A DNA stretch of 64,000 bases. It comes from Podarcis vaucheri. Lineage: Eukaryota. Below the pieces are notes generated by a model. The model ran no database searches. It was not told where the DNA came from and saw only the letters and a program-made list of their open reading frames with translations. The stretch lies in the NCBI GenBank assembly GCA_965113315.1, contig OZ220370.1; one strand, given 5' to 3'. Below are positions 21,450 through 62,889 of the stretch, piece after piece. Position 1 is the first letter of the stretch. The number at the start of each line of letters is the position of its first letter. A program made the position numbers and the translations under genes.

Positions 21450-21704
21450 AAGAAGAGGAGAAGGAGGAGTTTGGATTTGATATCCCGCCTTCCACTCCCC
21501 TTAAGGAGTCTCAAAGTGGCCAACTATCTCCTTTCCCTCCCTCCCTCACAACAAACACTGTGAGGTGAGTGAGGTTGAGAGACTTCAGAGAATAGTGACT
21601 AGCCTAAGGTCACCCAGCAGCTGCTTGTGGAGGAGCGGGGCAGCGAACCCAGTTCACCGGATTATGAGTCCATCGCTCTTAACCACTACACCATGCTGGC
21701 TCTC
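21450..21704 (-). mobile_element. Squam3-like tRNA-derived SINE
   Basis: Reverse complement of the SINE at 50147-50400, with a tRNA-like head and a CTT-type tail. Confidence 0.85.
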
Positions 21705-24841: not shown

Positions 24842-24942
24842 GTGCTATGGATGTGGAAGAAAGAAATCGCCAAATGAAAATGAACAAATACAAACAGGTA
24901 GCAGGATCAGACTCCAGGCTGGAGCAAGATTATCATTCAAAG
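24842..24942 (+). CDS. RIMS2: RIMS2 exon (G)AMDVEERNRQMKMNKYKQVAGSDSRLEQDYHSK; phase 1 to 0; GC donor
   Basis: The acceptor is TTTTGAATTTGACAG. The translation nearly matches recalled RIM2 AMDIEERNRQMKxNKYKQVAGSDPRLEQDYHSK. The exon ends AAG|GCAAGG and has an internal donor CAG|GTAGCA after 24897. Confidence 0.93.
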
Positions 24943-28059: not shown

Positions 28060-28240
28060 AGTTGCAGAATCATGGGAACTGTAGTTTCTTAAGAGTGCTA
28101 AGAATTGTTAGTTTCTTATAGAGCTACAATTCCCAGAGTGCTAATCAATCCCTATTTGCAGGGAACTCTGGGAATTGTAGCTCTGTGAGGGAAATAGGGG
28201 TTTCCTAACAATTCTCAGCACCCTTAACAAACTACAATTA
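28060..28240. mobile_element. Palindromic MITE-like repeat
   Basis: Inverted arms GAGCTACAATTCCCAGAG / CTCTGGGAATTGTAGCTC, plus outer TGTAGTTT..AAGAGTGCTAAGAATTG / CAATTCTCAGCACCCTTAACAAACTACA. Confidence 0.7.
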
Positions 28241-30360: not shown

Positions 30361-30965
30361 TATTTGTGCTTTTGTTACATTATTTTATTTAACAGAATTT
30401 ATATAACACACAAACTGAAGTCCTCCAAGCAGTTTACAAAAGACAATGTTATCAACATTTTGCTGTCAGTGTCTATTGTGTCCTTTTCTTTATCTTTTTA
30501 AAAGTAACAAATTTGTGACAATTTTGTATTTGGAGAATAGACACATAAATGACAGGTTTCCCCCCTGGGACTGTGAAGCTATAGTTCTTGGCAATGGACT
30601 CAGGTTTGAATCCTATCGATAGTAGGCATGTGCTCCTTTTGTTTGCAGTAAAACTCTGTAATGCAGCAGAATGTAACTTTCCTGTATTTGCATGGAACTA
30701 TTACAGAGAGATCGGGGTTTTATTAAGTGTTAGGATAGAATATATATGAGGACAGATTTGAGTCTCTCTGTATATGTGGAGATGGTGCTTTATTACTATA
30801 TTGATCATTTTGAGAGAGAAACAGAGGGAATTCATCTCCAAGGTAACTGTGGAGCAAAATTCTCTGCAAATCAAGAGGCTTTGTTGACCAACATTATGAA
30901 AAACAGCAAAGACGATCAGTGAAAAGTAGAAATCCTACATATTGGCATAAGCACTATTTTAAATA

Positions 30966-31310
30966 GGGACGCGGGTGGTGCTGTGGATTAAATCACAGAG
31001 CCTAGGACTTGTTGATCAGAAGGTCGGCGGTTCAAATCCCCACAACGGGGTGAGCTCCCATTGCTCAGTCCCTGCTCCTGCCAATCTAGCAGTTCGAAAG
31101 CACGTAGATAAATAGGTACCACTGTAGCGGGGAGGTAAACGGCGTTTCCATGCACTGCTCTGGTTTGCCAGAAGCAGCTTAGTCATGGTGGCCACATGAC
31201 CCGGAAGCTGTATGCTGGCTCCCTCGGCCAGTAAAGTGAGATGAGCGTCGTAACCCCAGAGTCAGCCACGACTGGAGCTAATGGTCAAGGGTCCCTTTAC
31301 CTTGACCTTT
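30966..31310 (+). mobile_element. Sauria SINE
   Basis: GGGACGCGGGTGG head with A/B boxes, ACCTTT tail, TSD ACTATTT(T)AAATA, and similarity to three other copies in the window. Confidence 0.92.
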
Positions 31311-31946
31311 ACTATTTAAATATTAAATATGAAAACCATGCTTTTGTAAAAAAATAAATAAATCTACATGTCACTTTAAACCATAGCTCAGTATAATGTG
31401 CACCTTTGATTGTTGAACTAAGCATGAAACTATAGTTTAGCTGCAGTTTGTTGATTTGAACAAAACAACAAACTGTAGTTAAAAGCAGAAGCAAAGGCAC
31501 CTGAACTTCTCCTTCCAAACTGATGGGAGAGGGAGGAGTTACAACCCTAATTCTCACTATACCTATGGTTCAGGCAAATCCTGAAGGAAAGCAGCCTGGT
31601 TCAGAAAAAAATTGGGATTTTCCAAGTCAATGTAGGATCTTTTTGAAGTGCCCCAAACTGAAGTGGGATCTCTGTAGTGATAGGAGTGCTTTGAAGCTTT
31701 ACAAGTTTTTGCCTTTTTAAAAAAAAATGCCTGCAAAAATGGAAATATTTCTCCCCCAGCTTGCCCTATAAGTAAAATACCAAGTACAGAAGAGGGCACG
31801 GAGAGTCCTTTCGTGACAGACATATCTGGTTTCTAATCAGAGGAAAATAAAATCACAATGCCTGGGGGAAGATGTGTTGATGTAACGTATATCTTGTTTG
31901 CATGCCCAGGAGCATGATTCCTGCAGCCCAGTAAGGGACTAACCTT

Positions 31947-34900
31947 GTTGTTGTTTAGTCGTTTAGTCGTGTCCGACTCTTCATGACCCCATGGACCAGA
32001 GCACGCCAGGCACTTCTGTCCTCCACTGCCTCCCGCAGTTTGATCAAACTCATGCTAGTAGCTTCAAGAACACCATCCAACCATCTCATTCTCTGTCGTC
32101 CCCTTCTCCTTGTGCCCTCCATCTTTCCCAACATCAGGGTCTTTTCCAGGGAGTCCTCTCTTCTCATGAGGTGGCCAAAGTATTGGAGCCTCAGCTTCAC
32201 GATCTGTCCTTCCAGTGAGCACTCAGGGCTGATTTCCTTCAGAATGGAGAGGTTTGATCTTCTTGCAGTCCATGGGACTCTCAAGAGTCTCCTCCAGCAC
32301 CATAATTCAAAAGCATCAATTCTTCGGCGATCAGCCTTCTTTATGGTCCAGCTCTCACTTCCATACATCACTACTGGGAAAACCATGGCTTTTACTATAC
32401 GGACCTTTGTTGGCAAGGTGATGTCTCTGCTTTTTAAGATGTTGTCTAGGTTTGCCATCGCCTTTCTCCCAAGGAGCAGGCGTCTTTTAATTTCGTGACT
32501 GCTGTCACCATCTGCACTGATCATGGAGCCCAAGAAAGTAAAATCTCTCACTGCCTCCATTTCTTCCCCATCTATTTGCCAGGAGGTGATGGGCCCAGTG
32601 GCCATGATCTTCGTTTTTTTGATGTTGAGCTTCAGACCATATTTTGCGCTCTCCTCTTTCACCCTCATTAAAAGGTTCTTTAATTCCTCTTCACTTTCTG
32701 CCATCAAGGTTGTGTCATCTGCATATCTGAGGTTGTTGATATTTCTTCCAGCAATCTTAATTCCGGCTTGGGATTCATCCAGCCCAGCCTTTCGCATGAT
32801 GAATTCTGCATATAAGTTAAATAAGCAGGGAGACAATATACAGCCTTGCCGTACTCCTTTCCCAATTTGGAACCAATCAGTTGTTCCATGTCCAGTTCTA
32901 ACTGTAGCTTCTTGTCCCACATAGAGATTTCGCAGGAGACAGATGAGGTGATCAGGCACTCCCATTTCTTTAAGAACTTGCCATAGTTTGCTGTGGTCAA
33001 CACAGTCAAAGGCTTTTGCATAGTCAATGAAGCAGAAGTAGATGTCTTTCTGGAACTCTCTGGCTTTCTCCATAATCCAGCGCATGTTTGCAATTTGGTC
33101 TCTGGTTCCTCTGCCTCTTCTAAATCCAGCTTGCACTTCTGGGAGTTCTCGGTCCACATACTGCTTGAGCCTTCCTTGTAGAATTTTAAGCATAACCTTG
33201 CTAGCATGTGAAATGAGTGAAATTGTGCGGTAGTTGGAGCATTCTTTGGCACTGCCTTTCTTTGGGATTGGAATGTAGACTGATCTTCTCCAATCCTCTG
33301 GCCACTGCTGAGTTTTCCAAACTTGCTGGCATATTGAGTGTAGCACCTTAACAGCATCATCTTTTAAAATTTTAAACAGTTCAGCTGGAATACCATCACT
33401 TCCACTGGCCTTGTTATTTGCAGTGCTTTCTAAGGCCCATTTGACTTCACTCTCCAGGATGTCTGGCTCAAGGTCAGCAACCACACTACCTGGGGTGTAC
33501 GAGACATCCATATCTTTCTGGTATAATTCCTCTGTGTATTCTTGCCACCTCTTCTTGATGTCTTCTGCTTCAGTTAGATCTTTACCACTTTTGTCCTTTA
33601 TTATGGTAATCTTTGTACGAAATGTTCCTTTCATATTTCCGATTTTCTTGAACAGATCTCTGGTTCTTCCCATTCTGTTGCTTTCCTCTATTTCTTTGCA
33701 TTGCTCGTTTAAGAAGGCCTTCTTGTCTCTCCTTGCTGTTCTTTGGAAATCTGCATTCAGTTTCCTGTATCTTTCACTATCTCCCTCGCATTTTGCTTGC
33801 CTTCTCTCCTCCGCTATTTGTAAGGCCTCGTTGGACAGCCACTTTGCTTTCTTGCATTTCTTTTTCATTGGGATGGCTTTAGTTGCTGCCTCCTGTATAA
33901 TGTTGCGAGCCTCCACCCATAGTTCTTCAGGCACTCTGTCCAGCAAATCTAAATCCTTAAACCTGTTCCTCACTTCCACTGTGTATTCATAAGGGATTTG
34001 GTTTAGATTGTATCTTACCTGTCCAGTGGTTTTTCCTACTTTCTTCAGTTTAAGCTTGAATTTTGCTATAAGGAGCTGATGATCTGAGCCACAGTCAGCT
34101 CCAGGTCTTGTTTTTGCTGACTGTATAGAGCTTCTCCATCTTTGGCTGCAGAGAATATAATCAATCTGATTTCGATGTTGCCCATCTGGGGATGTCCATG
34201 TGTAGAGTCGTCTCTTGTGTTGTTGGAAAAGCGTGTTTGTGATGACCAGCTTGTTCTCTTGACAGAACTCTATTAGCCTTTGCCCTGCTTCGTTTTGATC
34301 TCCAAGGCCAAACTTGCCAGTTGTTCCTTTTATCTCTTGATTCCCTACTTTAGCATTCCAATCCCCTATAATGAGCAGAACATCCTTCTTTGGTGTCACT
34401 TCGATAAGGTTTTGTAAGTCTTCATAGAACTGGTCAATTTCAGTTTCTTCAGCACCAGTAGTTGGTGCATAAACTTGGATTACTGTGATGTTAAAAGGTC
34501 TGCCTTGGATTCGTATCGAGATCATTCTATCATTTTTGAGACTGCATCCCAGTACAGCTTTCGCCACTCTTTTGTTGACTATGAGGGCCACTCCATTTCT
34601 CTTACGGGTTTCTTGCCCACAGTAGTAGATATGGTAGTCATCCGAACTGAATTCGCCCATTCCCGTCCATTTTAGCTCACTGATGCCCAGGATGTCAATA
34701 TTTATTCTTGCCATCTCATTTTTGACCACATCCAACTTACCCAGGTTCATGGTTCTTACATTCCAGGTTCCTATGCAATATTTTTCTTTACAGCATTGGA
34801 CTTTCCTTTCGCTTCCATGCATATCCACAACTGAGCGTCCTTTCGGCTTTGGCCCAGCCGCTTCATCAGCTCTGGATCTACTTGTACTTGTCCTCCGCTC

Positions 34901-35165
34901 TTCCCCAGTAGCATGTTGGACACCTTCCGACCTGAGGGGCTCATCTTCCAGTGTCATAACTTTTATATGCCTGTTGTCTTTGTCCATGGAGTTTTCTTGG
35001 CAGGGATACTGGAGTGGCTTGCCGATTCCTACTCCAGGTGGATCACGTTTGGTCAAAACTCTCCACTATGACCTGTTCATCTTGTGTGCCCTGCTCGGCG
35101 TAGTTCATAGCTTCTCTGAGTTCTTCAAGCCCCTTCGCCACGGCAAGGCAGTGATCCATGAAGGG
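31947..35165 (-). mobile_element. Full-length BovB (RTE-clade) LINE, 3.2 kb
   Basis: A 12-bp TSD GGGACTAACCTT (31935-31946 and 35166-35177), a (CAA)n tail, a BovB-type 5' end and a single intact ORF. Confidence 0.96.
31955..35056 (-). CDS. BovB APE endonuclease-reverse transcriptase ORF (1033 codons from TTG; first ATG at 34987, 1010 aa)
   Basis: APE motifs (GTWNVR, ILGISE, GDWNA, QIDYI, SDH) and RT motifs (QAGFR, FIDYAKAFD, GVRQGCILSP, YADD) are present, with no stops or frameshifts. Confidence 0.96.
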   Translation of the reverse strand: MTKRDPPGVGIGKPLQYPCQENSMDKDNRHIKVMTLEDEPLRSEGVQHATGEERRTSTSRSRADEAAGPKPKGRSVVDMHGSERKVQCCKEKYCIGTWNVRTMNLGKLDVVKNEMARINIDILGISELKWTGMGEFSSDDYHIYYCGQETRKRNGVALIVNKRVAKAVLGCSLKNDRMISIRIQGRPFNITVIQVYAPTTGAEETEIDQFYEDLQNLIEVTPKKDVLLIIGDWNAKVGNQEIKGTTGKFGLGDQNEAGQRLIEFCQENKLVITNTLFQQHKRRLYTWTSPDGQHRNQIDYILCSQRWRSSIQSAKTRPGADCGSDHQLLIAKFKLKLKKVGKTTGQVRYNLNQIPYEYTVEVRNRFKDLDLLDRVPEELWVEARNIIQEAATKAIPMKKKCKKAKWLSNEALQIAEERRQAKCEGDSERYRKLNADFQRTARRDKKAFLNEQCKEIEESNRMGRTRDLFKKIGNMKGTFRTKITIIKDKSGKDLTEAEDIKKRWQEYTEELYQKDMDVSYTPGSVVADLEPDILESEVKWALESTANNKASGSDGIPAELFKILKDDAVKVLHSICQQVWKTQQWPEDWRRSVYIPIPKKGSAKECSNYRTISLISHASKVMLKILQGRLKQYVDRELPEVQAGFRRGRGTRDQIANMRWIMEKAREFQKDIYFCFIDYAKAFDCVDHSKLWQVLKEMGVPDHLICLLRNLYVGQEATVRTGHGTTDWFQIGKGVRQGCILSPCLFNLYAEFIMRKAGLDESQAGIKIAGRNINNLRYADDTTLMAESEEELKNLLMRVKEESAKYGLKLNIKKTKIMATGPITSWQIDGEEMEAVRDFTFLGSMISADGDSSHEIKRRLLLGRKAMANLDNILKSRDITLPTKVRIVKAMVFPVVMYGSESWTIKKADRRRIDAFELWCWRRLLRVPWTARRSNLSILKEISPECSLEGQIVKLRLQYFGHLMRREDSLEKTLMLGKMEGTRRRGRQRMRWLDGVLEATSMSLIKLREAVEDRSAWRALVHGVMKSRTRLND

Positions 35166-36928
35166 GGGACTAACCTTAGGAATAAGAAAAAGGACATTGG
35201 TATCGGGTTGAAATAGGCCACAACTATTGATTACAGGTATATGTAGGTTTTGGCCAAGGCATTGGGTATGTATCCAATATCAAGCAGCCTGACTACTGGT
35301 TGATAAGTAGGATGGGCTGACCCTGACTTCAGGGTCGCTTCTTGACATGCACCTTATAAATAATGGTTGGGAAACAGCTTCAGACTTGTGTTTTGCTCAC
35401 TTGGCATCCAAAGTCACAGAAACTAAGTATAAAGCTGATTTTAAAGGAGTGGATGTGTGGACACAATGGCAGATAGGCTTGAAGTTCATTTTCCAAGTAG
35501 GCACCATTTGCAGAACCAGCAAAAACACAGAACAGATATAACTTCCTAGCAACTGTACCCATCCATCTTATATTTTGCAGGTTATGTTACTGGTGGTGGA
35601 GAAGGGATGGGGATGGTTTTAGCAAGTGCCACAGCCATGACTGTGTCTGGTTAAATCAACTGTAATTGTTCCTTCACTCCAAATTTAAGGTTAGACTGCT
35701 ATAAAGTGCTCAACTATAGAGGTTTTGCTTGATGGTTGTACCCAAACTTCAGTTGTTGCAAAGGCGGCAACTTTCTTTCCAGTGTTGATATTTTTCCAAA
35801 GCATATTGTATCTAAGCTCCATTATCTACAGTGGTTTCTGCATATCTTCCGGATTCTGAATATATGAAGTACTGGTATGGACTATAAAATCCTACAGATC
35901 TCTGAGTTGGAACCCCAGTATGCCAAATAGGGTGCTTTTTTAATGGGAGGTAATCCTTGATTAATCGCAGAAAGGTAGCTATCCATCAGCATTTTCATAT
36001 AAGCACAAAATACTAGAAACAGAATGCAGTGAAACGTTTTTGCTCATGGGTGAGTGCAGAGAATTGAAATTTAAATGCAACAGATTTTTAAAGGGAGTCA
36101 ATTAACCTGGAATTCAAAACATAAAAAGAAAGACAACCTCAAACAGTTTTTCATTCATCATAGCTCCCTAATCCCTACACCTATCCTAAAACTTTATGGA
36201 TTACTTACCTAAGAGAAAAGTCTCTGACCTATTTGTCTGAAATTTGTCATTATTCCCTCAGAAGGGGCAACAATGCCTTCAAATTTAACCCTCTTCTACG
36301 AAGAGGTGAACTAGCTTTTGGGGTCTCATTTAAAACAAACCCCATACCTCAAACGTGTATTGCATAGAAACCCTTGCACATATTTGTGAAGTTTGGAAGG
36401 CCTCTACATGTACAAATTCATCCAGTTCATCCCAGTTAAAAACATTGTGGCCTTTTGGTCACTTCCCCAACTAAATCACTGGGAAGACATATGAAACACT
36501 GAAGTTCAAAGCAAGCACCTACTTCACATCTGAGGCCAAGGGATCTAAAGTAACCTAAGTCAAATTGGCTCACTTTCTGAAGCACCAAAGCAGGGTCCAA
36601 TCCAAATGTCTTTGTTGCATGTCCCTAATTTTTACCCCATGGCAGCTTTATAAATTTTTTTTACCCAAACCAATGAGAATCTGCAATCTGAATCCCTGGG
36701 CACTAGAGTCCCTCCCTGTATTTGAGGGAAAGCCTTCAGAAATGCATATTGTGATCCTAGGATAGAGGGCAGTATAGGAAATGAAATGAAATATGTCCAG
36801 AAGGTTATCAACCCTACTAGAGCTGAGCGTCTCCACCTGCCAAGTCAAATTGAGATTCCATAGGACAGGTAGACCGATTATACCTTTTCACCCGAAGAAA
36901 CATTTTGGTGACAAGTAATCCTCAATAT

Positions 36929-37271
36929 GGGACGCAGGTGGCACTGTGGGTTAAACCACAGAGCCTAGGGCTTATTGATCAGAAGGTCAACAATTCGAAT
37001 CCCCGTGATGGGGTGAGCTCCCGTTGCTGGGTCCCTGCTCCTGCCAACCTAGCAGTTCAGAAGCACATCAAAGTGCAAGTAGGTAAATAGGTACCACTCC
37101 AGCGGGAAGGTAAACGGCGTTTCTATGCACTACTCTGGTTTGCCAGAAGCGGCTTAGTCATGCTGGCCACATGACCCAGAAGCTGTGGCCAATAAAGCGA
37201 GATGAGCACCGCAACCCCAGAGTCGTCCGCAACTGGACCTAACGGCCAGGGGTCCTTTACCTTTACCTTTT
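36929..37271 (+). mobile_element. Sauria SINE
   Basis: Same family as 30966, with TSD TAA(T/C)CCTCAATAT. Confidence 0.92.
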
Positions 37272-40200
37272 TAACCCTCAATATGCATGACCAGCAAAGA
37301 TATACAAAAGGAAATCAAGGAAATTAAACCTCCAGACAGTCTAGTGAAGGCTGGTTAGTTTGCAGGCTTTGCTAATGCCTAATTATGTAGTCCATAGTAC
37401 ATAAAATTAAAATATCCTGTGCAAAGTGTCGCAGTAGCTGTGTGAGGGGAAGAACATGAATCCAGAAGCCAATGCCTAATCATACAGAGCTCTCACTTGA
37501 GTAATTCTTTTTCTACTTTTTGTTTTTGAGGTGAGAGAGAAATTGTTCAGATGGGGTCTTCACTTGATGAGATTTTGACATTCAGTGTCCAGCTCATTCA
37601 TTATTTCTCTTCACAAAGATTCTTACACCATTGATCTTTTCATTGACCGTTTCACTCGTAGAGGTGCAATATTGACATCTTACCATTGTTGCTTGGTTGC
37701 CACCTCTAATAGCTCTCAGCTCTTTTAACACCAGCTATTCTAACACTGTTATTTGCTTTAGATCTCCTCTTATATTGGGTACCAATAAATAGCATTAGGG
37801 AAAATAATTGTTCTTTGTGATGTACAGTAAAAACCCTCTTGTTACCTTAGCTTTCTAAAGACACTGCCAAAGATCCTATTGGTTGCAGTCCTTTGGGAAA
37901 ATTAAAGCCAACTTCCAAAAAAGTGCACTACAACTGCTTTGCTGATAGTGATATTTAAATGATAGTGATACCAGTGGCTTGATAGCTAACAAAGCAATCC
38001 TAATGTGCTACTGTGGCCTTGTGGAATGGCAAAGCTACTGCTGCATCTGTGGCCCAGCCACTCATGGCAGTTGAAGTGTGGGGCAGACAGATTGGGCTGG
38101 AACAGCACTCTGCCCTGGATCAGGCCCTTCATGGACAGCTGACATCAGCTATAAGAGTGGCTTGTGAGCCAGCAGACCCCAGGCCAGCTCAGCCCTTCCC
38201 TTAGAATGGGCCATTTCAGGACCTTCTTCTGGACTCTGTCAATGGGAATTTCAGTGCTTGGTGGGCAAATAAGGGTGGTCTGCACCGTTGGAGTGATGCA
38301 AGTGTCCCTTCAGTGGTAGTGACCTGGTGAGCCAGCTGATACAGGTGGAGGAATCCCTTTACTCAAATCTAAGCTCACCATAGTCTGACATAAGGAAGGT
38401 TTGGATTGTAGCCTTTAGAAGCTTGGAAGCTCAGGACTGAAAGCTTTTTATTGCATTATGTTCTATTTAGAGATATAATGGTTAGAACAATATAATCAAA
38501 TAAATTACATTTATTCATTCATTCTTCATTTACTTCCTGCCCTATTACCCTAAGGCCTCAAGGCAACTAACAACACTTAGCTTGTATGCATTGGTCCGTG
38601 TCCCTTAGAGGACTCACAGTATATGTAGGTCATATCATCAACAAGGCAAGAAAAAGAGAAGGAAATAGCAAGGGAGGAGAATTTTTAAATCATTGAACTC
38701 ACCACCACAAAAAAGCTTTACATAAAAGGAATAATTTTTAATTTCCCTGAATACATGGGAGGAAGGCAGTAGAAGGACTAATTCTCAAGTAATTTAGGAA
38801 CAGGTATGTGGATGGTGTCTGTACTTGTGTCACTGTCCTAGCTTTCTCACATATGACTGTTGATTATATGTGGTCACTGTGGTGAGAGAAGGATCAGTCT
38901 AGCTGGCCTAGAGGGAAGTACATAGATGTTTGCCCCAGTCCCCAGGAGATATGCATGAAGAAGTAGACTTCTGCATGCATAGCATTTGCTGGATGAATAG
39001 TCACTTATGTAAATCAGATGTGCAAATCACATCTGTTGCCAGTTTGTACTGTGTTGCTTTCGGAGTGATGTGTATCTCAATGCACATTCCCATCCATGTT
39101 AGATCTGGGCTGGTATAGTCACTTTCTTACACAGGGCACTTGATATTTGTTTTTTGGTTTTTTAAAAAAGTTTTGTTTTTTCATGTTTTTTCTGATGTGC
39201 TTACTTGGGATGCATCTGCCTTGAAATATATATTTTTTTGGCGGGGAATTATGCTAAAATTGTAATTATGATTGTAAACAGACATTGTAAATCTTTTATA
39301 AATTGGAAAATTCAATAATGGTAGCCCTTACCAATAAGTTGAGTTAATATTTGTATCCTGCTTTACCAACAACAAATGTAGAGCTCAAAATGGCTCACCT
39401 TCCTCCTCCCCCCCCCACCTTGTTTTGTGAGTTTGGACCTCTTCCTTGACTAGCTGGCTGTCTAACTACCGTTTTATAAACCACTTAGAGGTTTAATTAC
39501 AATCAAGCTGTATATACATTCTGTTAAATAAAAAAAACAGCAGGAATAGCTATAACTTTTTCCAGCCTCAGTGCCACATTCGTCCTCTGGGAGGCTCATG
39601 CCAGCAGTGGGTGCATATACCCCACATGCACGCTGTGCACAGATATGAAATGAAATTAAATATGTGCAGAACACATACACAGGCCACACATATGTACACA
39701 GACACAGACTCACATCACTTCTCTGATTATCTGTGCAGAGGACAGGGTTTGTGGCATCCTCCTTGCTCATCAGATGATTGATGTGATGATCATGATCAGG
39801 TGATTGATCTGATTAGGGAGGGAGCTCCCCCCCACACACACATCAGGGTACTCTACCGAGCTCTGCACCCTGATGGGGTTAAAAACCACCCTCTTCTCAC
39901 ATCAGATGACTGATCTGAAGGGGGAGAGGGCAATTCTCTCCATGACGTCTTTCAAACCAGTTTTGTTCTACCTAACAAAAAAGCAATTTCCACATGTTCA
40001 GAAGCACATTGCTCTTAGGTCCCCATTGCTGGGCTCCTGCAGCTATTGCTAGTCATGGATGCAGGGAATGAAACCCTTTTCTTAGTGTGGATCATTTGGG
40101 CAACTGCTACTTCCAGGTTCTTTGCTTGCAATAATGTCCAGCTGCTGGTGATGATCACCAAACAGCTCAGAAAGTAATCTCATCACACATCAGAAGGCAG

Positions 40201-45542: not shown

Positions 45543-46401
45543 TAAATAAAAAAATTCCTTCCTGTAGCACCTTAAAGACCAACTAAGTTAGTTCTTGGTA
45601 TAAGCTTTCGTGTGCATGCACACTTCTTCAGATACACTGAAACAGAAGTTGCCAGATCCTTCTATATAGTGAGAAGGTGGGGAGGGGTATTACCCAGAAG
45701 GGTGGTGGGAATGGGAGATTGGCAGATAGCTGAGATGAGCCTGTTGACGACTCTTAACGACTGTAATAGGTCTTACAGGAAAAGGCAAGGGGTGAGAAGG
45801 TGAGAAATGGCTTAGTCATGTATAATTAGATAAGAATACAATGTCTTTGTTCAGACCAGGTCTCTCCATTGTTTTAAGTTTGGTAATGAGTTGCAATTCA
45901 GCAGCTTCTCTTTCCAGTCTATTTCTGAAATTCCTTTGTAGTAAAACAGCTACTTTGAGATCTTGTATAGAATGTCCTGGGAGATTGAAGTGTTCTCCTA
46001 CTGGTTTCTCTGTTTTGTGATTCTTGATGTCAGATTTATGTCCGTTTATTCTTTGGCGTAAGGTTTGGCCTGTTTGTCCAATATAGAGAGCTGAAGGACA
46101 CTGTTGGCATTTGATGGCATACACAATGTTAGACGATGAGCAATTAAATAGTCCCGAGATGGTATGTGTGATGTTGTTGGGGCCAGTAATGGTGTTGTCC
46201 GGGTGTATGTGGCAACAAAGTTGGCATCTGGGTTTATTGCAGGCTCTGGTGCCAGTGTCCGTGTTAAGTCTGGTTGTGGTATTATTGTGGGTTAGGAGTT
46301 GTTTAAGATTGGGTGGCTGTCTGTAGGCAATGAAAGGTCTTCCTCCCAGAGCTTGAGAAAGAGAACTGTCATTGTCCAGGAGAGGTTGTAGATCTCTGAT
46401 G
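45543..46401 (-). mobile_element. 5'-truncated Penelope-like element (Neptune-type) with GIY-YIG endonuclease and 3' pLTR
   Basis: An open frame of about 195 codons carries a Cys-rich linker (ACNKPRCQLC) and a GIY-YIG domain (VYAIKC..C...LYIGQTG..LRQR...H...GLN). The element splits a CR1. Confidence 0.9.
45597..45636 (-). ncRNA. Minimal type I hammerhead ribozyme of the Penelope pLTR
   Basis: The minus strand reads GUAU-CUGAAGA-A-GUGUGCAUGCACAC-GAAA-GC-UU-AUAC. It has both core boxes, a palindromic stem II, stem I GUAU/AUAC and a palindromic AGCU in place of stem III. Confidence 0.75.
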
Positions 46402-46640
46402 ATCCAATTGAGCTGAATGTTGGAAGTTTCAGGACAGATAAAGGAAAGTAAGCTCTGCCTCTACACTTTGAGGCAGCAATGGTTCTGAATGCCAGTTGCT
46501 GCAAACCACGGGGGGGGGGGGAGCGTGCTCTTGTGCTTAAATCCTGCTTGTAGGGTTTCCCACAGGCCAGTGGTTGGCCACTGTGAGAACAGGATGTTGG
46601 ACTTCAACGGGCCATTGGCCTGATCCAGCAGGCTCCTCTT
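46402..46640 (+). mobile_element. CR1 LINE fragment, right part (3' end)
   Basis: The CR1 resumes at ATCCAATTGAGCTGAATGTTGGAAG, as in the uninterrupted copy near 2150, and ends in a CR1-type 3' UTR. Confidence 0.8.
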
Positions 46641-48385: not shown

Positions 48386-48446
48386 GATGTATGTATGTAT
48401 GTATATATGTATGTACGTATGTATGTGTGTGTATATATATATATAT

Positions 48447-49315
48447 ATGCAGGTTTTGGTGTCTTCGGGTGTCTTCCCGTGTAAGAGTCGGGGTGTCTGT
48501 GCGACGTTTCGACGAGGTCTCACTCGTCATCTTCAGGCTGGTGCTTTCGGCTTCTTGTTACTGGAACAGAGCAGAGTCTGGTGTTTGAGTTCCTATAAAT
48601 ACTGTTGAGGGGTGTGGTGTATAGCCTCCAACGTTCTGGGCAAAGAGGAAGTTCCTAGATTAGTGTGCCTTTTCTTCTTTTGTTCCTTAATTACTTGAGG
48701 GATATCTTGGGTGATTTCATGAGTGGTATTCAGAATATCACTGGGTGGGTCATTAAGTGTAGATTAGTTGCTAAAGCTTTCGTGTCTTGACCTCTTGAGC
48801 TTGTGAAGAGTTTTTCTGAGAAGATGGCTGTGCTGCATTTAGTTGTGCTCTGGCTCGCCCCTATACACGAAGCCAAGCCAGAGCACAACTAAATGCAGCA
48901 CAGCCATCTTCTCAGAAAAACTCTTCACAAGCTCAAGAGGTCAAGACACGAAAGCTTTAGCAACTAATCTACACTTAATGACCCACCCAGTGATATTCTG
49001 AATACCACTCATGAAATCACCCAAGATATCCCTCAAGTAATTAAGGAACAAAAGAAGAAAAGGCACACTAATCTAGGAACTTCCTCTTTGCCCAGAACGT
49101 TGGAGGCTATACACCACACCCCTCAACAGTATTTATAGGAACTCAAACACCAGACTCTGCTCTGTTCCAGTAACAAGAAGCCGAAAGCACCAGCCTGAAG
49201 ATGACGAGTGAGACCTCGTCGAAACGTCGCACAGACACCCCGACTCTTACACGGGAAGACACCCGAAGACACCAAAACCTGCATTCCTGTACCCGTGAAA
49301 ATCTACGAAAGCAAA
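48447..49315. mobile_element. Inverted pair of Penelope-like pseudo-LTRs (409-bp arms, 20-nt spacer, about 31-nt tail) in a (TA)n/(TATG)n tract
   Basis: 48447-48855 is the reverse complement of 48876-49284, with no mismatch found by eye. Each arm carries a hammerhead core and a TATAAATA motif. Confidence 0.88.
49191..49232 (+). ncRNA. Minimal hammerhead ribozyme motif (mirror copy on the - strand at 48499-48540)
   Basis: GC-CUGAAGA-U-GACGAG-ugagac-CUCGUC-GAAA-C-GUC-GC: intact core, 6-bp stem II, GUC triplet and palindromic ACGU. Stem I is short. Confidence 0.72.
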
Positions 49316-50146
49316 TATATATATATATGTATATATATGCTTATGTGTTAACAACTTAAAATGGGCTTGGTAATGGGTCTGTTTGTGGGAACAGCTATAG
49401 TGGCACAGCCCAGCCGACTACCTCTGGATTCCATCACCTTATTCTGTTGCATATATAAATCATTTCCTAAAGTTTGGAGCAGCTTAGATTTTTCATTTTC
49501 CCAGCAGACCTAAGAATGTAGTCATCCAAGAGATTAGCATGCCCTAACACCGCAGTTAGAACTTAATGTAATGTCTCCTCATAAACAGTGCTATTCAGTG
49601 AAGTCATTTCAGACATTTAAGCTGTGAGTCATCCTAAGCTCTGTTCATGCAACCAAATGATAGAGTGAAAGCATGCATGGGGGAGCAGGAGGAACTCTTC
49701 TTTGCAGAGCCTTTGCGCATACAACTTGCACATGCACAGCTCTTTCTGAATCATGCAGAGACAGCCTACTGTATACAAACTGCATCCCTGAAAATTTGAT
49801 GCAGAAGTCTCAGTGAATGGGTAGAAGCCTGTTACTATGTTCCTCCTCTATTCTGCATACACACTTTACCCTGTTTTGTTACATGAATAGTGTCATAGAG
49901 TAAACTAAGTGACCAAGGGATGAATACGGCTGTGATAAACAGCCATCACACATAATGACTTCCTCAAAAGAATCCTATGAGCTCTGCTACAAAGTAGGGA
50001 TTTAAACTTGAGCCTGCTATATCAAATTGCAACATATCCCACCCCATGGCCAGCAATTGCAACCTTAAATATAGTTGCTTTATTTAACTCTATTTTCTAT
50101 TTTCTACCCATTGGGCTGTATTCAGCTACCACATCCCAACAGTACT

Positions 50147-50400
50147 GGAGAGCCAGTATGGTGTAGTGGTTAAGAGCGGTAGTCTCGTAATCTGGTGAAC
50201 CGGGTTCTCGTCTCCGCTCCTCCACATGTAGCTGCTAGGTGACCTTGGGCCAGTCACACTTCTCTGAAGTCTCTCAGCCCCACTTACCTCACAGAGTGTT
50301 TGTTGTGGGGGAAGAAGGGAAAGGAGAATGTTAGCCGCTCTGAGACTCCTTCAGGTAGTGATAAAGCGGGATATCAAATCCAAACTCTTCTTCTTCTTCT
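50147..50400 (+). mobile_element. Squam3-like tRNA-derived SINE
   Basis: Head TGGTGTAGTGGTTAAGAGC...CCGGGTTC and a (CTT)n tail. Confidence 0.88.
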
Positions 50401-52893: not shown

Positions 52894-53066
52894 TATCGAC
52901 CAGGGCGGGACCCTCAACGAGGCTCTGACAATGTTTCTAACAAGTCTTCAGACAGCGATGTAAGCGACGTGTCGGCTGTATCGAGGACCAGTAGCGCTTC
53001 CCGCTTCAGCAGCACTAGCTATATGTCTGTACAGTCAGAAAGACCAAGAGGGAACAAGAAAATTAG
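52894..53066 (+). CDS. RIMS2: RIMS2 exon YRPGRDPQRGSDNVSNKSSDSDVSDVSAVSRTSSASRFSSTSYMSVQSERPRGNKKI; phase 0 to 2
   Basis: Acceptor CATTTTTACAG and donor AG|GTAAGA flank an open, CpG-rich frame. It carries the RIM-family SSDSDVSDVSAVSRTSSASRFSSTSYMSVQSERP motif, and its phase matches the upstream exon. Confidence 0.95.
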
Positions 53067-53301: not shown

Positions 53302-54733
53302 ACTTACAAGGTTGTATTTTTGAACAGCAGATCAGCTTTCCACCGATTCCACTTGGTTCAAGTAACACAGTTCCCAAAAGATTTTTTAAAATCTTATGCT
53401 AGTTTTCTGCGACAGTGGAGTGTTTTCCTGGATTGAAAATGAACCTATTATTGACAATTCAAGCCAGTATTTAAAGTCAGTTATTGTACTTTACAGATAT
53501 TAGAAATTCATTTATACATCTTAGTAGCTGCATTTGATAAGTCTACGTCATGGAGCTATAGAAACAACCTACTGTAGATCTAGTACATTAATGACCTTAC
53601 TATGGGATGTGGTGAGGAAAACATGAAATGTTTGCATGTTCATGGCATGCCTACAGCATAATGTGATATATAGCCTCCTCTGTCAAAAAAGGAAGATTAC
53701 ACAAACATGCGCAGCTGATCACAAGTGTTCACATTCCTCCAAACCAACTAAGGAGCTATGAACCGTAGGTCTGTAGTTTAGACATTGGCCCATGGGTGGC
53801 CAACTCCACAATTAAAGAGACTATTGGAATTGCCATAAAAGGCTTGTGTGCTTTAAAATGTATTTTAAAAAAAGTAACAGGGAAAAGGAAGTAAGGGGTT
53901 TCAAAAAAATTTCAGGATTTTTTTCAGGATTGCACAGAACAGCCAAGACAGAGGCCATTTTTAATCCTCCCTTTCATGACTAGAGTAGCTTTAGCATTTC
54001 ATAACCCTTCAAATCTCTTTGCATCTTTTGATTAATCACACCCATTTATATGATTCTCCCCTGCCCTTAAATATGTGTTATATATACCCCTGTATATATA
54101 ACACATCTTTAACTATTCTGCAAAGGATTGACTGATGATAACGACTGACTGTATGATCAATTCATACAGTTATCCAAATTGCCAAGGCAGTTTCCCATTA
54201 GCTAGTAATCAGAAATTTGAACTATATCTGTGCTGCTTCTCCTTTGCTGACCCGGGAGGAAATTAAGTACTGTGCTGGCTTAGTGATATGTGCAAACGAG
54301 TTTTTGTGTTTTGTATCTTTTTTCAACAAGTCATGAGAGGAAGCCAAGAACAAGGCTTGAAACTGTGACTTGTTATAACATGTAAAGTGGCCCATTGTTA
54401 TAATAGCTAGACATAGGCAGTCCAAAGGATGAGTTGCTTGTGTGCTGCTGACAAACAAGCAGTCTCTCGTGAGAAGGAAAGATTAGCAGTAGCAGCCAGG
54501 AAAGTTGACTCAGCACTCCATCAGTAACCTTCAAGCAACCCCAGGGGCAGTGGACTAGAAACAAGTGACTGCCTCTTAGCAGAATCTAGCACAGAATGGA
54601 TGCTGGGTTGTGAAAATTTCATTTCCACTTCTCATACTTACATTGACTTTCAGAATGACAAGCTGGAATGGGTGCATGTACGCTTGCAGAATGCAAGCTG
54701 AATTTCCATGCATAAATGTGCACATATATGTGC

Positions 54734-55104: not shown

Positions 55105-55350
55105 ATCAAGTGAGGAAAGAAAAGAGGGAGGGGAGGGGGAGATATTCCCTGAGGAAGATGAGGAGAATCAGGATCTTGAGAAAAAGGAGGATGAAAAAGG
55201 GGAAGGGGAAGAGGTGACAGAGAACTGTGATAAGGAGGAGAACAAAGAAGCAGAAGAGAATGAAGGGACCCAAGATGAGCAAACTGAGAAAGGGACAGAA
55301 ACAAAAAATAAAGAGGATTTGCAAAGGCGATACTCACAAGATGATCTCAG
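55105..55350 (+). CDS. RIMS2: Candidate RIMS2 Glu/Lys-rich cassette exon (82 codons, phase 2-2)
   Basis: A long upstream pyrimidine tract leads to acceptor GGAAG|ATCAAG. The open, purine-rich frame reads SSEERKEGGEGEIFPEEDEE...QRRYSQDDL and ends at donor CAG|GTAAAA. The length is 246 nt and the frame continues the exon ending at 53066. Confidence 0.72.
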
Positions 55351-55635: not shown

Positions 55636-57927
55636 CCACTCATGAAAGTAATTTTCAGCCAACTCCAGAGCTTTCTTAAACTCTGCTGTCAACAGAATAC
55701 AGTATATATTCACCCTAACAATGGGTGGTTTGATCTTCACACACAGCAACACCATGAATGAGTGCAATGTGTTCCTCTTCCAGGGGCTTTTTAGTGCCCT
55801 CCATAATGGCTGGTATTTCATTAGTAGGGACAATAATACTTGATTGTTTCAAGAATTCACTACTGAATGGTGCATGCGGAGTCTTGAACTAGTTTGGGTA
55901 ACGTGCTATAGAAAATGCTGAGTACTATTATTAGTACTACAGTACTGAGGACAGGGATGTTACAGAAGTTTTTCATGTTCCAAACATTAACTACTTTAGA
56001 TAATTCTTTTCCGGTGACATCACTACAAAGGAATATGTGCTTTGCCTAATATGTAAGAGAAGGGAACTATTGATCTTGCTCATCTGTATAGTAATCGTAT
56101 TTGCGATACATAAGTAGATCTTAAAGTGCCTTTTCATTCCTGTAAGTTACTTCTATGTCACTCTGCTGTGTATAATACATCCCATTGATTTTTATAGAGC
56201 TATCACCCAGTGAGAAGTGTATGTGAACTCTGAGTACACTGCAGAAGGCTGAAATCATTCATTTTTAAATTACATTGGTGGTTTCTTGGTGTGTAAGTGG
56301 ACAGTGCTGCATTTTTACAATATAGTTTCTGATGGTGTGAGTTTAAAGTACAAACTGGAGGGGAGTTCTCTCCCCCTCCTCACCTATCCCTACTACGCTT
56401 CCTTGTTTCCAGAAGCTGCATGTAAAGCCTTCCCCACTTCCCAAAACAAACTCCTTTCCTTCCCCTTGTAAAAGCAGATAGGCATGGCAGCAACGAAAAG
56501 GGGGGTTTTCCACTCTCTCCCTCTGAAGCTCTAGTGCACTAATTAGCAGCACACAATGGGAGCCCAAGGGGGGATGTTGTTCCCCCATCATTGCGGATAG
56601 AACAACCTTCAGTAAAACTACAACACCCATGGGCCATGGGTTCCATTGCTCTAGTGTGCTGCTAATGACTGCACAGGGCACTGGAGAGGGAAGGCAGGAG
56701 GGGGGACTCTCTCCCTCTCAGCTGTTTGCATCACTGCAGTCATCTGCTTTTACAAGGGAAGGGAAGGGGGGAGTAAGGGTCAGGGCTCAAGGACTGGTGA
56801 AGTGGGCTTCTAGGGATAGCCAGGGCCAGTATGGATGGGAAGTCCTTTCCTCGCCAGCTAGGAAAAAGACTCCCTTGGAGAGTCCTTCTCAAGAGATTTG
56901 AGTGGAAGGTTTGAAGAGGCCCTGCTTTCCCATCCTTGGCATGTGGCAGTATCCAACCCCCCACCTTCGTGGTTTGAGGCATATCAGTGTGTCATTTTGC
57001 CTGAACTGTTAAACCACGGTTGCACTTGCTCTGCAAACAGGGAGTGAAAGCTAGGGTTTGATCCAGAGCTCAAATTATGGGGAAATGTACAAGCCCTTTC
57101 TGAAATCGAAAAGCCCCAAGCCCTGATTTCCCCCTGCCACTGAGACTAGTGAAGAGACTACAGCCATGGACAGGTAATCACCATAAGAACAAAGCAAGTT
57201 TTGCTTTTTTTTGTTTTTTAAAAGTTAGATTTTATCTTAAGCTAAAATGAAAATCAGTCTTCGGGTTAGAGAAGCCTTTTCACCTATTTAAAGTGTTTGT
57301 ACTGTTTCTTCAATGAACACTTCAATGAGTCAAGTCGTGGCAGCAAAGTAATTCGTAGCATTTATGCTTTAGGAATTCTACTTCCTACGCTGATTATTTT
57401 TTGTTTCTAAGTCATAATTATTCCATTAAATTGGACATCTTTACATCCCACTGTCATCTCTTTATTCTTATCTGTGTTCTTCTACTTTGCCGTCACAAGC
57501 ATTTTATAGCTGACATTTTCCTTGATTCAGAATATTTTTTTTTACTCCCACGCCATGCTGAGCTAAGCAAGGTTTTAGTGTGTCTTCCAAACCTGGGCTC
57601 AGGTTAGTGAGGAGCCTGGATTCTGGCAATGACAAGCTTAGCCAAACCTTGGCATGGCTTAGCTTAGCTTAGTACAAAGACATAGGGGTACAAAACTGGG
57701 GAGGAGCAAAATGCCTACAGCCTCCTCTCAAATGTTTGTGTGGTCCTGGTCCTGGTAAGGTATGGTTTGGCTTGCCATGACACGTGAACCAGACCTGTTC
57801 AATACAGTCTGCCTGACAAGTACCTTTTGAAAATAATTTACATACATAAAATATTTCATAGGTCCAATTCTTCACAAAGTTTCTATTAAAAACTCCCTAA
57901 AGTTAGGGGATAACTATATATTAAACA

Positions 57928-58284
57928 GGGGACACGGGTAGCTCTGTGGGTTAAACCACAGAGCCTAGGACTTGCCGATCAGAAAGTCAGTGGTTCAGAT
58001 GCCCGCGACGGGGTGAGCTCCCATTGCTCAGTCCCTGCTCCTGCCAACCTAGCAGTTCGAAAGCACGTCAAAGTGCAAGTAGATAAATAGGTACCACTCC
58101 AGCGGGAAGGTAAACTGTGTTTCTGTGCACTTCTCTGGTTTGCCAGAAGCAGCTTAGTCATGCTGGCCACATGACCCGGAAGCTATACGCCGGCTCCCTC
58201 GTCCAATAAAGCGAGATGAGCGGCGCAACCCCAGAGTCGGCCATGACTGGACCTAATGGTCAGGGGTCCCTTTACCTTTACCTT
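57928..58284 (+). mobile_element. Sauria SINE
   Basis: Same family as 30966, with TSD TATA(T/C)ATTAAACA. Confidence 0.92.
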
Positions 58285-60699
58285 TATACATTAAACACAA
58301 ATAATAGAGATCTAATGCCATTTTTAAAAGGGTAAAATTGAAACGCAGAAGTGGCGTAAGGGAGAACCGGTGTGTTGTGCCCCTACCTGCCACTGCTCCT
58401 ATCCCCCTGCTGCACCAAAGAAGAAGCTAGGTTGTTTAGTCACAGCTGCTGTCACTCATCTGAACATGACAGCGGACTGCGGACATAGCTAGAAGAGGAA
58501 GCTGTAGCATTGGATTCAGAAACTGCTGATAAACTGGAACCTTAGGGACAGTGGATGCTGCATGAGAGGGGAGAAAAGAAATAGGAGAGTTTCAAAAAAG
58601 TAGAGAGAAGGAGTTGTGAGCTTAGACACTGTAGGTTTGAGTCTAGAAAGAAGAGCACCAGTCCAACATAACAGATATGGAAGATCTGAGATAACTCAAG
58701 GATCAGGGTGAAGAAAGCCATTGGCTTCTCTACCTTTTCTATAATACTGAATAAGGAATATGTGGCCTTCCAAAGGTTGTTGGACTCCATCAACCCCAGC
58801 TAGCATCACCAGTGATCAGGGATGATATGAGTTGTCATTCAGCAACATCTTTGAAACTGCAGCTTCCCTACCCCTGCTCTGTAACAAATACCTTCTAGCA
58901 AAAAGTGAGTCAGAAGGGATATTAAACTACCTCTTGTCCCAGCAGGGCTTATAAAATGCTTCAACCGTTTCCTATCCTGCTGCTTCTCTGCTCCAGATCA
59001 TTCCTCCTGAGCTGCTTTTTCTCCCGCAGGTTTCAAAAAGTGGGAAGAAGTAGTTTGAGAGAGTGATTTGGAGTACAGAAATGGCAGGTAAGAAACGCTC
59101 TGCCAAATTCTGGCCTCCCAAAGCTCTTTCTGTCTTGGTAGTGACAAACTGTGTACACATGTTTGCATATAGCTAGGCCCAGTTATTTGTGGTTTATGTA
59201 TAAGGTGAATGGCAAAGCTACATGTTCCATGAGGGGGTTGGGGCTTTCCCCATCTCTCAGCACACTGAGAGAGGACATTATACATCCTTTCCCCTCCAGG
59301 CATAAAAACTGATTAGGGTGGTGGAGGACTTTTAGTTGAAAATAGATATGGTTAAGGAGCCATTCTCACCCTGTACTTGCTTAAAGTTGCAATGGCTGAA
59401 GTATATATATATATTAAATCTGAAAACAAAGAATGATGGAAATTGCACACTCATAAAAATCAGTATAGTGCATACCAGTTTTCTTCCATGATTCCCCCCC
59501 CAAAAAAAATTAAAATCATACATGTTAACATTATGAAAAATAATACAAAATTATTCTAGGGCTAGGTTAATTGGCAATTACTTTATTTGTATAGGAAAAA
59601 TCAAATATAGTTTAATTTGTAGTGTTGTATCTTAATTTAGCTCACCCAAGGTATTCCTGGGTATTATAAAATCTAGCCATCCTGTAATGTTATTTCCATA
59701 CTCATTATCACTCTTCTTCTCCATAACAGAATTTATATTAGATGTTCCTTAACTTCTGGTGTGGTTGCTAATTAGAGAAATCTTCTCCTCAGCAAGCTTT
59801 TAATTTATTGAATAAAACTGGTCAACCATGTCTCTTCTTACCCTACAGCTGTGTCATGATTTTTCTTTATCTTGGATATTTTTGACAATTCATTGCCTCC
59901 AATGTGAATCACTGTGAAAATAGCTTTTTCTATATTATTTATCTCATTTTTATGACATGATTAAAAATTCTCCTTTTTGCAGTTTGCTTTCAGGGTCATG
60001 TTGGATTTAGAACACAGCTGAATGCCTTACTTCCATTTCTTGATTTTAATATTTATTACTAGCTTTAAGCAGGGTTGTATTCTTCTTTCTCCTGATTCTG
60101 AAAATCACTTAGGGGTGAACATAAATTCAATTGGAGTTGAACTCATGATTAAAGTTATCTAACTCAATTACATATCCCTAAGCACATAATTTTAGTCACT
60201 CTTCTAAAGCATGGGTGGCTTTTTGTTTCATTTTTTGTTTTGCAGAGTAGTACCGCCTGTAAAAGGCTAATTAATGGCAGCAACATTGTCATTGACACTC
60301 CATTAAAAATGTGGATGTTTATTTGACAAGCTGAGCCAGAAAGACTGCTCACTTTACGGCTTGAATGATTTACTGCCTGATAAGTTGTTCAGCCTCTCAG
60401 GTCATTTACTTGGTATTTTCAGATTTAACTGAGACGTTATTTTCAGTTTAATTTGAGACCTGGCCTTTATCTGGGAGGAAGCTCCCTGGTTATCAGGCTG
60501 TAAGTGCAGTAGGGCTATAGCTAAATAACCACTGTAGCACTTCTGGATACTAACTGATTAGGTTAGATGTCACCTATGTTAGGTCTGATTTTAAGGTCTC
60601 AAAACTTTGGGTCCTTGTTTGCGTTAAGGTTCTTATTACCTAATTCTTATTATAAATTCTAGTCCTTATTCTGACACAATGCCAGCTAAGCACAGATGA

Positions 60700-61080: not shown

Positions 61081-61110
61081 TAGTTTGCATAAATGTATGA
61101 CACAATGGAA

Positions 61111-61460
61111 GGGACGCGGGTGGCACTGTGGGTTAAACCACAGAGCCTAGAACTTGCCGATCAGAAGGTCAGCGGTCCGAATCCCCGCGATGGGGTGAGC
61201 TCCCATTGCTCGGTCCCTGCTCCTGCCAACCTAGCAGTTCGAAAGCACCTCAAAGTGCAAGTAGATAAATAGGTACCGCTCCAGCGGGAAGGTAAATGGC
61301 GTTTCCGTGCGCTGCTCTTGTTCACCAGAAGCAGCTTAGTCATGCTGGCCACATGACCCGTAAGCTGTACGCCAGCTGCCTCGGCCAATAAAGCGAGATG
61401 AGCACCGTAACCCCAGAGTCGGTCACGACTGGACCTAATGGTCAGGGGCCCCTTTACCTT
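61111..61460 (+). mobile_element. Sauria SINE
   Basis: Same family as 30966, with TSD TAT(G/A)ACACA(A/C)TGGAA. Confidence 0.92.
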
Positions 61461-62889
61461 TATAACACACTGGAATCCAAACTACATTTCTAAGATGAGG
61501 AAATGTGTTTTTCAGGTAATAATAGCATTATTTTGAGCCAGGGTTTGTCAAATGTTCTACTAAGCCAGGCTTTGCAGGCAGAGAGCCCTGGTTCAGTCCC
61601 CAGCAGGTATTTGAAACGGAGAGTGTCTTTTGTGGGATCTGTGTTGTTTACTCATGCAAGGCCTTTTTTGACAACACTGCTGTCAAAATGCTATTCTGTA
61701 TTCACCCTGCCCCATTTCATTAGGATAATTTATCTTCCCATAGAAAATCTGAGAAGTTGAATCAAGTTGTTGCCAACAACATTTGAAGGACGCATTTGCA
61801 GTATGAAGAATAGGCCACTGTGGTCTGGTAGGAGGTAGTTAGGTAGATCTCTGGTTTGCAGTAGCTCAGCAAAAGTTTCTGACACCCAGTTATTTTTATA
61901 GTAACAACAACAAAAAGGCTCCCTCTTCCTCCAGACTAAGACTTCTGAAAAGAAGCGAGGTTGGGGGGAAACCAGGACTGGATTTTTCTGTGACTTGACT
62001 GTGATCTTATTTTCAATACATAACACTAATTCCTGGTTCAGAGACACACTATTCCTTAATTCTGAGGATGTGTCTGCCCCTGTCCTCAGGCTAATATTTT
62101 GACTGCCTCTGATTGGTGGCCCTTTGGGGTTTTAGTGAAAAACAAAGTAGCTCTCATAAGCCTAAAGTCTCCCACACCTGGTGGCTGAGCTAGAACACTA
62201 CATTACTGAGCTTGATGGACCAGTGGTCCCAATCAGTATATGACAGCTTCCTGGTTTCTAACTAGATCAGAGGGGAATATTATATAGACTGCAGATGGGA
62301 CTCACATGCATATAGAAACATTCCCTGCACATACAAAATAAATGTGTCAGGGGAGAGGCTAGACTAGAACTTTTCTCCCAGGCATTAAGTTGTCTTTGAA
62401 GGAGAAAATATTTTATATGTAGGACTATTCAATCATATGAGTCCATAACCGCAGTCTTTGTTCAGGTCAGACACAGGTTTGTCACCTCCATGAGAAATAA
62501 AGCCTATTAATCTGATCAGTTTTTATCCAAGGGAGGGCTTAAGATTTTTATAGTTTAAAAACTGACACTGTCCCTTTCCTTTGATACCAATAGGCCAATG
62601 AAAACACATACAGTATACTGGGTGGAAAAGTAGCTTCTGCTGCATAATTGTTCTGAACATGCCATTATCATTCACATTGTTTGACTAATCAATGAAAGAA
62701 ATGCTTCTCTGACTAGGAGATAGGGCTTGTGTTAAAACCTCTATTAAGAAATCTTCAGAGGTCTGTTCATTTGATGAGTCATAACTCAGATTAAAATTTA
62801 TTTCCATAGCAACTAAAAATCATTCGTTCTTTCCCTAGAAACCACCAGAGCACATCAGTGCATTAATATATGCATTCCCTGTTTTTCTT

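Follow-up and report, generated by a model that had tools for sequence, protein, structure and literature searches.

Penelope-like elements (PLEs) typically insert with an adjoining inverted, 5'-truncated copy and a tail of 30 to 40 bp at one end (Craig et al., PMC8557442). Schostak et al. described inverted terminal repeats of this kind in D. virilis (PMC2377424), and Arkhipova et al. reported head-to-head junctions together with an optional 31-bp tail and proposed self-priming (PMC3846280); the origin of the inverted copies is still treated as an open question (PMC8557442). The PAc protein of Anolis carolinensis cleaves both strands of AT-rich DNA and extends each of them (Frangieh et al., PMC11167929). 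Its reverse transcription starts inside the open reading frame (ORF), mainly at +111 to +118, and a pair of start sites delimits the tail (PMC11167929).

Two further properties of these elements concern their RNA. Metazoan PLEs carry minimal hammerheads, which show little or no cleavage without a dimer and have already been seen as opposite-strand pairs 100 to 700 bp apart (PMC4209133). In lizard brain, Porath et al. counted more than 40,000 unique hyper-edited Penelope sites, compared with 8,663 in all SINEs (PMC5625713).

Here we analyze an intronic inverted repeat in a 64-kb window (the whole 64,000-nucleotide stretch of Podarcis vaucheri DNA). We read it, with a probability of about 0.88, as a head-to-head pair of 5'-truncated, non-autonomous copies of Penelope/Poseidon type that was formed as a PLE insertion and has no selected function.

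Geometry and identity of the inverted repeat

The insertion, its flanks and the neighboring host exons are listed below by position in the window, with features named according to this reading.

24842..24942, + strand: upstream host exon of 101 nt, probably RIMS-family, with a GC donor after it
48387..48448, no strand: left target flank, (TATG)n, (TG)n and (TA)n simple repeat, with the last AT common to the element end
48447..48855, - strand: inverted, shorter 5'-truncated PLE copy without the tail; outer end at ORF +84 (+82 if the shared AT is not counted)
48503..48536, - strand: minimal hammerhead motif in the left copy, its core beginning at 48536 and its lower coordinate mirrored from the motif on the right
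48856..48875, + strand: unpaired 20-nt spacer between the arms
48876..49284, + strand: right arm, with a probable ORF 3' end, a 199-nt untranslated stretch and the initial 84 nt of the PLE ORF
49195..49228, + strand: minimal hammerhead motif of the right copy, predicted cut after 49228
49201..49317, + strand: 39 codons of the PLE ORF start (MTSETSSK...ENLRKQI), truncated where the insertion stops
49285..49315, + strand: one-sided 31-nt tail, ending near ORF +115
49315..49338, no strand: right target flank, (TA)n
52894..53066, + strand: downstream host exon of 173 nt that continues the reading frame of the upstream one

When aligned to each other, the arms at 48447-48855 and 48876-49284 are exact reverse complements, with no indel and no mismatch (0 of 409 positions). 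The first-pass annotation had described two such 409-bp arms, a 20-nt spacer and roughly 31 extra nt on the right copy only, and each of these stands; the extra sequence is exactly 31 nt and has no mirror on the left. This is the longest of the 33 inverted pairs in the 64-kb window (the runner-up is 162 nt long, 83% matched and 28 kb apart), and the window holds no further copy of the arm. With only 20 nt between the inverted copies, the entire insert forms a single hairpin. The predicted fold of its + strand RNA (-839.3 kcal/mol) lies far below that of 20 shuffles (-243.1 ± 4.7 kcal/mol), in agreement with its earlier description as a strong former of double-stranded RNA (dsRNA).

Read in + strand order, the right copy contains a 48-codon open frame (48855-48998), a stop codon (48999-49001), 199 untranslated bases and an ATG at 49201. 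The 48-codon frame may be the 3' end of a preceding PLE ORF; used as a query in a word-indexed protein search, this supposed 3' end returned 29 candidates, none of them related. The spacer, which opens this frame (starting SPLY), is probably an extra 20 nt of 5' sequence belonging to the longer right copy. We also observed a TATA-like word at 49130-49137 (+), with its mirror near 48594-48601 (-), about 65 to 70 nt before each ORF start. If active, the two words would drive outward transcription, which on the left would run antisense to the host gene.

The 39-residue peptide that begins at the ATG identified relatives of the element. A word-indexed protein search with this peptide yielded no match among 3 candidates, and a profile search of 1.84 billion representatives yielded two, P0001 and P0002. 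We dropped P0001 as a repeat artifact because its 19-residue match recurs across 15 segments of a protein that is itself repetitive. The alignment of P0002 with the window peptide begins at residue 1 of P0002 and shows 69% identity (E = 1.5e-4); used as a query, P0002 matched one of 397 longer candidates, a protein of the rattlesnake Crotalus adamanteus (P0003; E = 8.5e-64), whose N terminus is identical to the window peptide at 23 of 39 positions (59%). Downstream of this region, P0003 carries what we take to be the motifs of the start of a PLE reverse transcriptase (RT); a comparison of P0003 with Pfam gave nothing significant, and one with the Atlas gave DUF8422 only and no PLE-named family. 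The insert itself lacks both RT and endonuclease and retains just 39 codons of the ORF. Its placement with Poseidon rather than Neptune elements is suggested by a by-eye likeness to PAc, in a copy that has neither RT nor linker.

Each arm also contains a minimal hammerhead motif. The motif in the right copy has a CUGAAGA core, a single bulged U, a 6-bp helix II and GAAA; a palindromic ACGU replaces helix III, helix I is just 2 bp long, and the ATG at 49201 lies within the motif, at the start of helix II. A minimal-hammerhead descriptor matched twice in the 64 kb, once per arm (with any match in 5 of 100 shuffled windows), and the two motifs lie on opposite strands 659 bp apart. Rfam gave no match at gathering score across the whole window, and its 33 subthreshold matches at the locus were of generic hairpin or TA-repeat type, none from a hammerhead family.

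The first-pass annotation had overlooked that each arm holds a hammerhead motif and an ORF start, and these identify the element and fix its orientation. Because they point outward in both arms, the copies lie head to head with their truncated 5' ends in the center. That annotation had recognized a Penelope-like inverted pseudo-LTR with a one-sided tail: the Penelope label is supported by the peptide matches and the hammerhead motif, and the arrangement stands as well.

The window contains other repeats. A second Penelope-like fragment (45819-46460, - strand), 2 kb upstream, carries a GIY-YIG domain (Pfam, E = 7e-6) and a CxxxxCxxC linker. This linker, we presume, places the fragment in the Neptune clade. 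Assignment to Neptune by the linker is consistent with PMC8557442. At 31958-35065 (-), 1,036 codons stay open without interruption and encode endonuclease and RT domains; this frame looks to us like a young RTE/BovB-type LINE. Imperfect palindromes at 28077-28239 (70%), 31436-31483 (83%) and 54067-54112 (87%) are possibly old and MITE-like, and a 350-nt direct repeat is present in four copies with 80 to 90% identity (30955-31311, 36924-37273, 57917-58288 and 61110-61462).

Target site, formation and age of the insertion

The insert is flanked by (TA)n on both sides, as expected from its earlier description as an insertion into a (TA)n microsatellite. Any target duplication would be at most 14 nt long and would lie wholly within (TA)n, where it is indistinguishable from the repeat. 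The left copy extends to ORF +84, where an AT is common to element and target, and the right copy ends at about ORF +115, a position blurred by 1 to 3 A/T bases in common with the flank.

Formation of this structure would begin with a cut in the (TA)n tract by the GIY-YIG endonuclease of the element. Reverse transcription from the element's internal start sites would then produce a head-to-head pair of short, 5'-truncated copies, the first stopping ahead of the tail (ORF ~+84) and the second beyond it (~+115), with arms identical from the start. The joining could occur by either of two routes. Each nicked target strand could prime a cDNA, one per start site, and the two cDNAs could join at their 3' ends (route a), or a single cDNA could fold back and copy itself, with the product resolved before the tail (route b). 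At both flanks, the inward-running strand is the antisense of the element RNA, a requirement of route (a), and one cDNA per start site would explain the one-sided tail directly. Route (b) might be helped by the spacer, which can extend a stem on the cDNA strand, but not above controls: when folded as DNA, 48 of 441 alternative 20-mers did at least as well, as did 43 of 300 shuffles, and for the RNA minus strand the counts were 24 of 441 and 33 of 300; neither result was significant, and the plus strand was weaker. Route (b) thus gains no real support from the spacer, and we would favor route (a) only slightly, at about 55:45. Since one end lies before the tail and one after it, the locus would allow two-strand priming to be weighed against fold-back, given the sequence of the parent element.

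The perfect identity of the arms had been taken to mean that the insertion is very recent or has been homogenized, which overstates what identity can say. If both arms were copied in one insertion event, they were identical or near-identical at the start; identity therefore gives only an upper bound on age, and homogenization is not required. Zero differences over 409 positions put the 95% upper limit at 0.9, 1.8, 3.7 or 7.3 My if the rate per site and year is assumed to be 4, 2, 1 or 0.5e-9, respectively, so that only a bound of 0.9 to 7.3 My remains of the original claim. The CpG observed/expected ratio is 0.66 in the insert and 0.23 in the window, and this weak CpG depletion fits a young insertion. 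As to stability, lengthening the spacer of an Alu inverted repeat in yeast from 12 to 20 bp lowered recombination about 40-fold (PMC10164571), which suggests that a hairpin with a 20-nt spacer is fragile but not extreme.

Two other origins have to be weighed against a PLE insertion. A fold-back artifact, in which assembly or library preparation duplicated a single copy, would also leave arms with 0 of 409 differences, and inverted PLE structures are known to trouble assemblies (PMC8557442). At this locus, the flanks are not mirror images (two chance matches of 12 to 20 nt, E = 0.48), the host exons are in order and in frame across the site, the arms end at the biologically expected points before and after the tail, and the window contains no ambiguous N base. 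Because the flanks are unique and collinear, we consider an artifact very improbable. Long terminal inverted arms in a TA target also recall a fold-back or MITE-like DNA transposon, and a long hairpin could belong to a microRNA-type gene, but the ends are asymmetric where symmetric terminal inverted repeats would be expected, with the 31 extra nt on the right only. Both arms moreover contain a hammerhead motif and the start of a PLE ORF, and the Rfam search gave no family at gathering score, its weak matches being generic. A DNA transposon or hairpin gene is accordingly the least credible of the explanations considered, and we regard it as exceedingly improbable beside a PLE insertion.

Host intron and predicted fate of the hairpin RNA

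Both host exons are on the + strand and share a reading frame across an intron of 27,951 nt, within which the insert is located 23.5 kb 3' of the exon at 24842-24942 and 3.6 kb 5' of the exon at 52894-53066. The peptides of these exons are, we believe, those of RIMS2; searches of Pfam, PDB, the Atlas and the literature returned no name for either. Of the earlier placement in a RIMS2 intron, the intronic position between two in-frame exons therefore stands, with the neuronal gene RIMS2 as the putative host. The upstream exon ends AAG/GCAAG (24942-24948, +), and this GC donor makes the hairpin-bearing intron of 27,951 nt look like a GC-AG intron. Farther downstream, a candidate 246-nt acidic cassette exon (55105-55350, +) is in frame with the exon at 52894-53066 and has matching splice phases. 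A link to circRIMS2 was considered and dropped; that circle was reported from mouse exons 4 to 19, which are not mappable onto the exons of the window. An inverted pair at 21451-21704 and 50148-50400 (84%) flanks the exon at 24842-24942 and could pair around it in pre-mRNA. We presume these SINE-like repeats to be Sauria SINEs; along with the rattlesnake origin of the nearest named relative of the element, they point to a squamate as the probable host.

During transcription of the host gene, the antisense arm would precede the sense arm and should capture it during synthesis, giving a 409-bp duplex that would be nuclear and intronic. Such a duplex would bury the hammerhead, attract ADAR and be degraded along with the intron. 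With the hammerhead masked, a helix I of only 2 bp and no sense partner in cis, cleavage of the host pre-mRNA appears unlikely. The duplex contains 222 adenosines (73 + 149), and the other three inverted pairs in the intron have 70 to 83% matches. ADAR editing of the intronic hairpin, which the first-pass annotation had raised, is likely in view of the heavy Penelope hyper-editing in lizard brain (PMC5625713), a prediction tempered by the observation that a long hairpin in mouse was just slightly edited (PMC3245926). Neither the sections of PMC5625713 consulted nor the literature searched gives a structural cause for Penelope editing in lizards, and the supplements of that paper may say more. 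Head-to-head copies could be such a cause: we rate it slightly better than an even chance that they are the reason why, of all LINE-class repeats in lizard brain, Penelope is hyper-edited most heavily, in which case the present locus offers a concrete structural reason for that heavy editing.

The first-pass annotation had also proposed that the hairpin may be diced to small interfering RNAs that silence the Penelope family in trans. A perfect 409-bp duplex that spans the untranslated stretch and the ORF start would be a suitable precursor. Antisense small RNAs are also directed at PLEs in rotifers and Drosophila (PMC3846280), but those in rotifers are mostly piRNA-sized, at 25 to 32 nt (PMC3846280); likewise, long hairpins cause strong RNAi in mouse oocytes but are poorly diced in mouse somatic cells (PMC3245926). 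In addition, intronic RNA is generally nuclear and short-lived, and neurons are not germline. Silencing in neurons would not limit germline transposition. Taken together, these points make silencing from this hairpin very unlikely, and the broader proposal that head-to-head PLE copies in transcribed introns feed Dicer in germline or neurons and act as brakes on the family in squamates is highly doubtful as well. If the broader proposal were true, the PLE insertion route itself would build perfect hairpins, and each transcribed intronic head-to-head copy would be a ready-made dsRNA gene. A silencing role would be of greater consequence; nothing at this locus supports one. An ordinary PLE insertion is the preferred reading; as a single locus it carries little weight alone, and it is a useful test case for PLE insertion and for editing.

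Comparison with described systems

The closest described element is PAc (Poseidon_Ac of Anolis carolinensis), a member of the Penelope/Poseidon clade. In both, the ORF starts at hammerhead stem II, the predicted cut lies just past the start codon (25 nt here, 26 nt in PAc), and the target is AT-rich; the tail ends at about +115 here, and RT starts at +111 to +118 in PAc (PMC11167929). By eye, the short motifs between the hammerhead and the end of the tail follow one another as they do in the printed PAc RNA. The present element nevertheless belongs to a different family, with no match by eye over the first ~30 codons, and its helix I is 2 bp rather than 3 bp (PMC11167929). Unlike PAc, the insert has neither RT nor endonuclease. 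Head-to-head pairs are not treated in the parts of PMC11167929 available to us.

Such pairs are found in the PLE insertions of D. virilis, Adineta vaga and Naiads (PMC2377424, PMC3846280, PMC8557442), which share with this locus a head-to-head inverted 5'-truncated copy, simple-repeat targets and a one-sided tail of 30 to 40 bp (A. vaga Pen2a has 31 bp, this locus 31 nt). They differ from it in spacing, as just 20 nt separate the inverted copies here. The hammerhead motifs share with those of other metazoan PLEs the unpaired base before G10.1, the G10.1-C11.1 pair, the 6-bp helix II, the palindromic 15.2-16.2 positions and an opposite-strand spacing within 100 to 700 bp (PMC4209133). They differ in that their opposite orientation leaves a dimer without a second sense copy in cis and in that the antisense arm should mask the motif. 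A non-LTR retrozyme was rejected on the same arrangement, with hammerheads on opposite strands and no tandem array; the tandem forms described in the retrozyme preprint (10.64898/2026.07.22.740005) are not applicable here.

As an RNA, the insert resembles the ADAR-edited Harbinger repeats of Xenopus (PMC5625713), which likewise fold on themselves through a short loop and need no neighboring copy; the palindrome of such self-folding repeats is part of their consensus, whereas here it would come from the insertion route. The inverted copy, the one-sided tail, the AT-rich target and the paired hammerheads have all been published, so that the architecture is known in each of its parts, and the insert, without sign of function, is a clean and ordinary case of the published PLE insertion shape.
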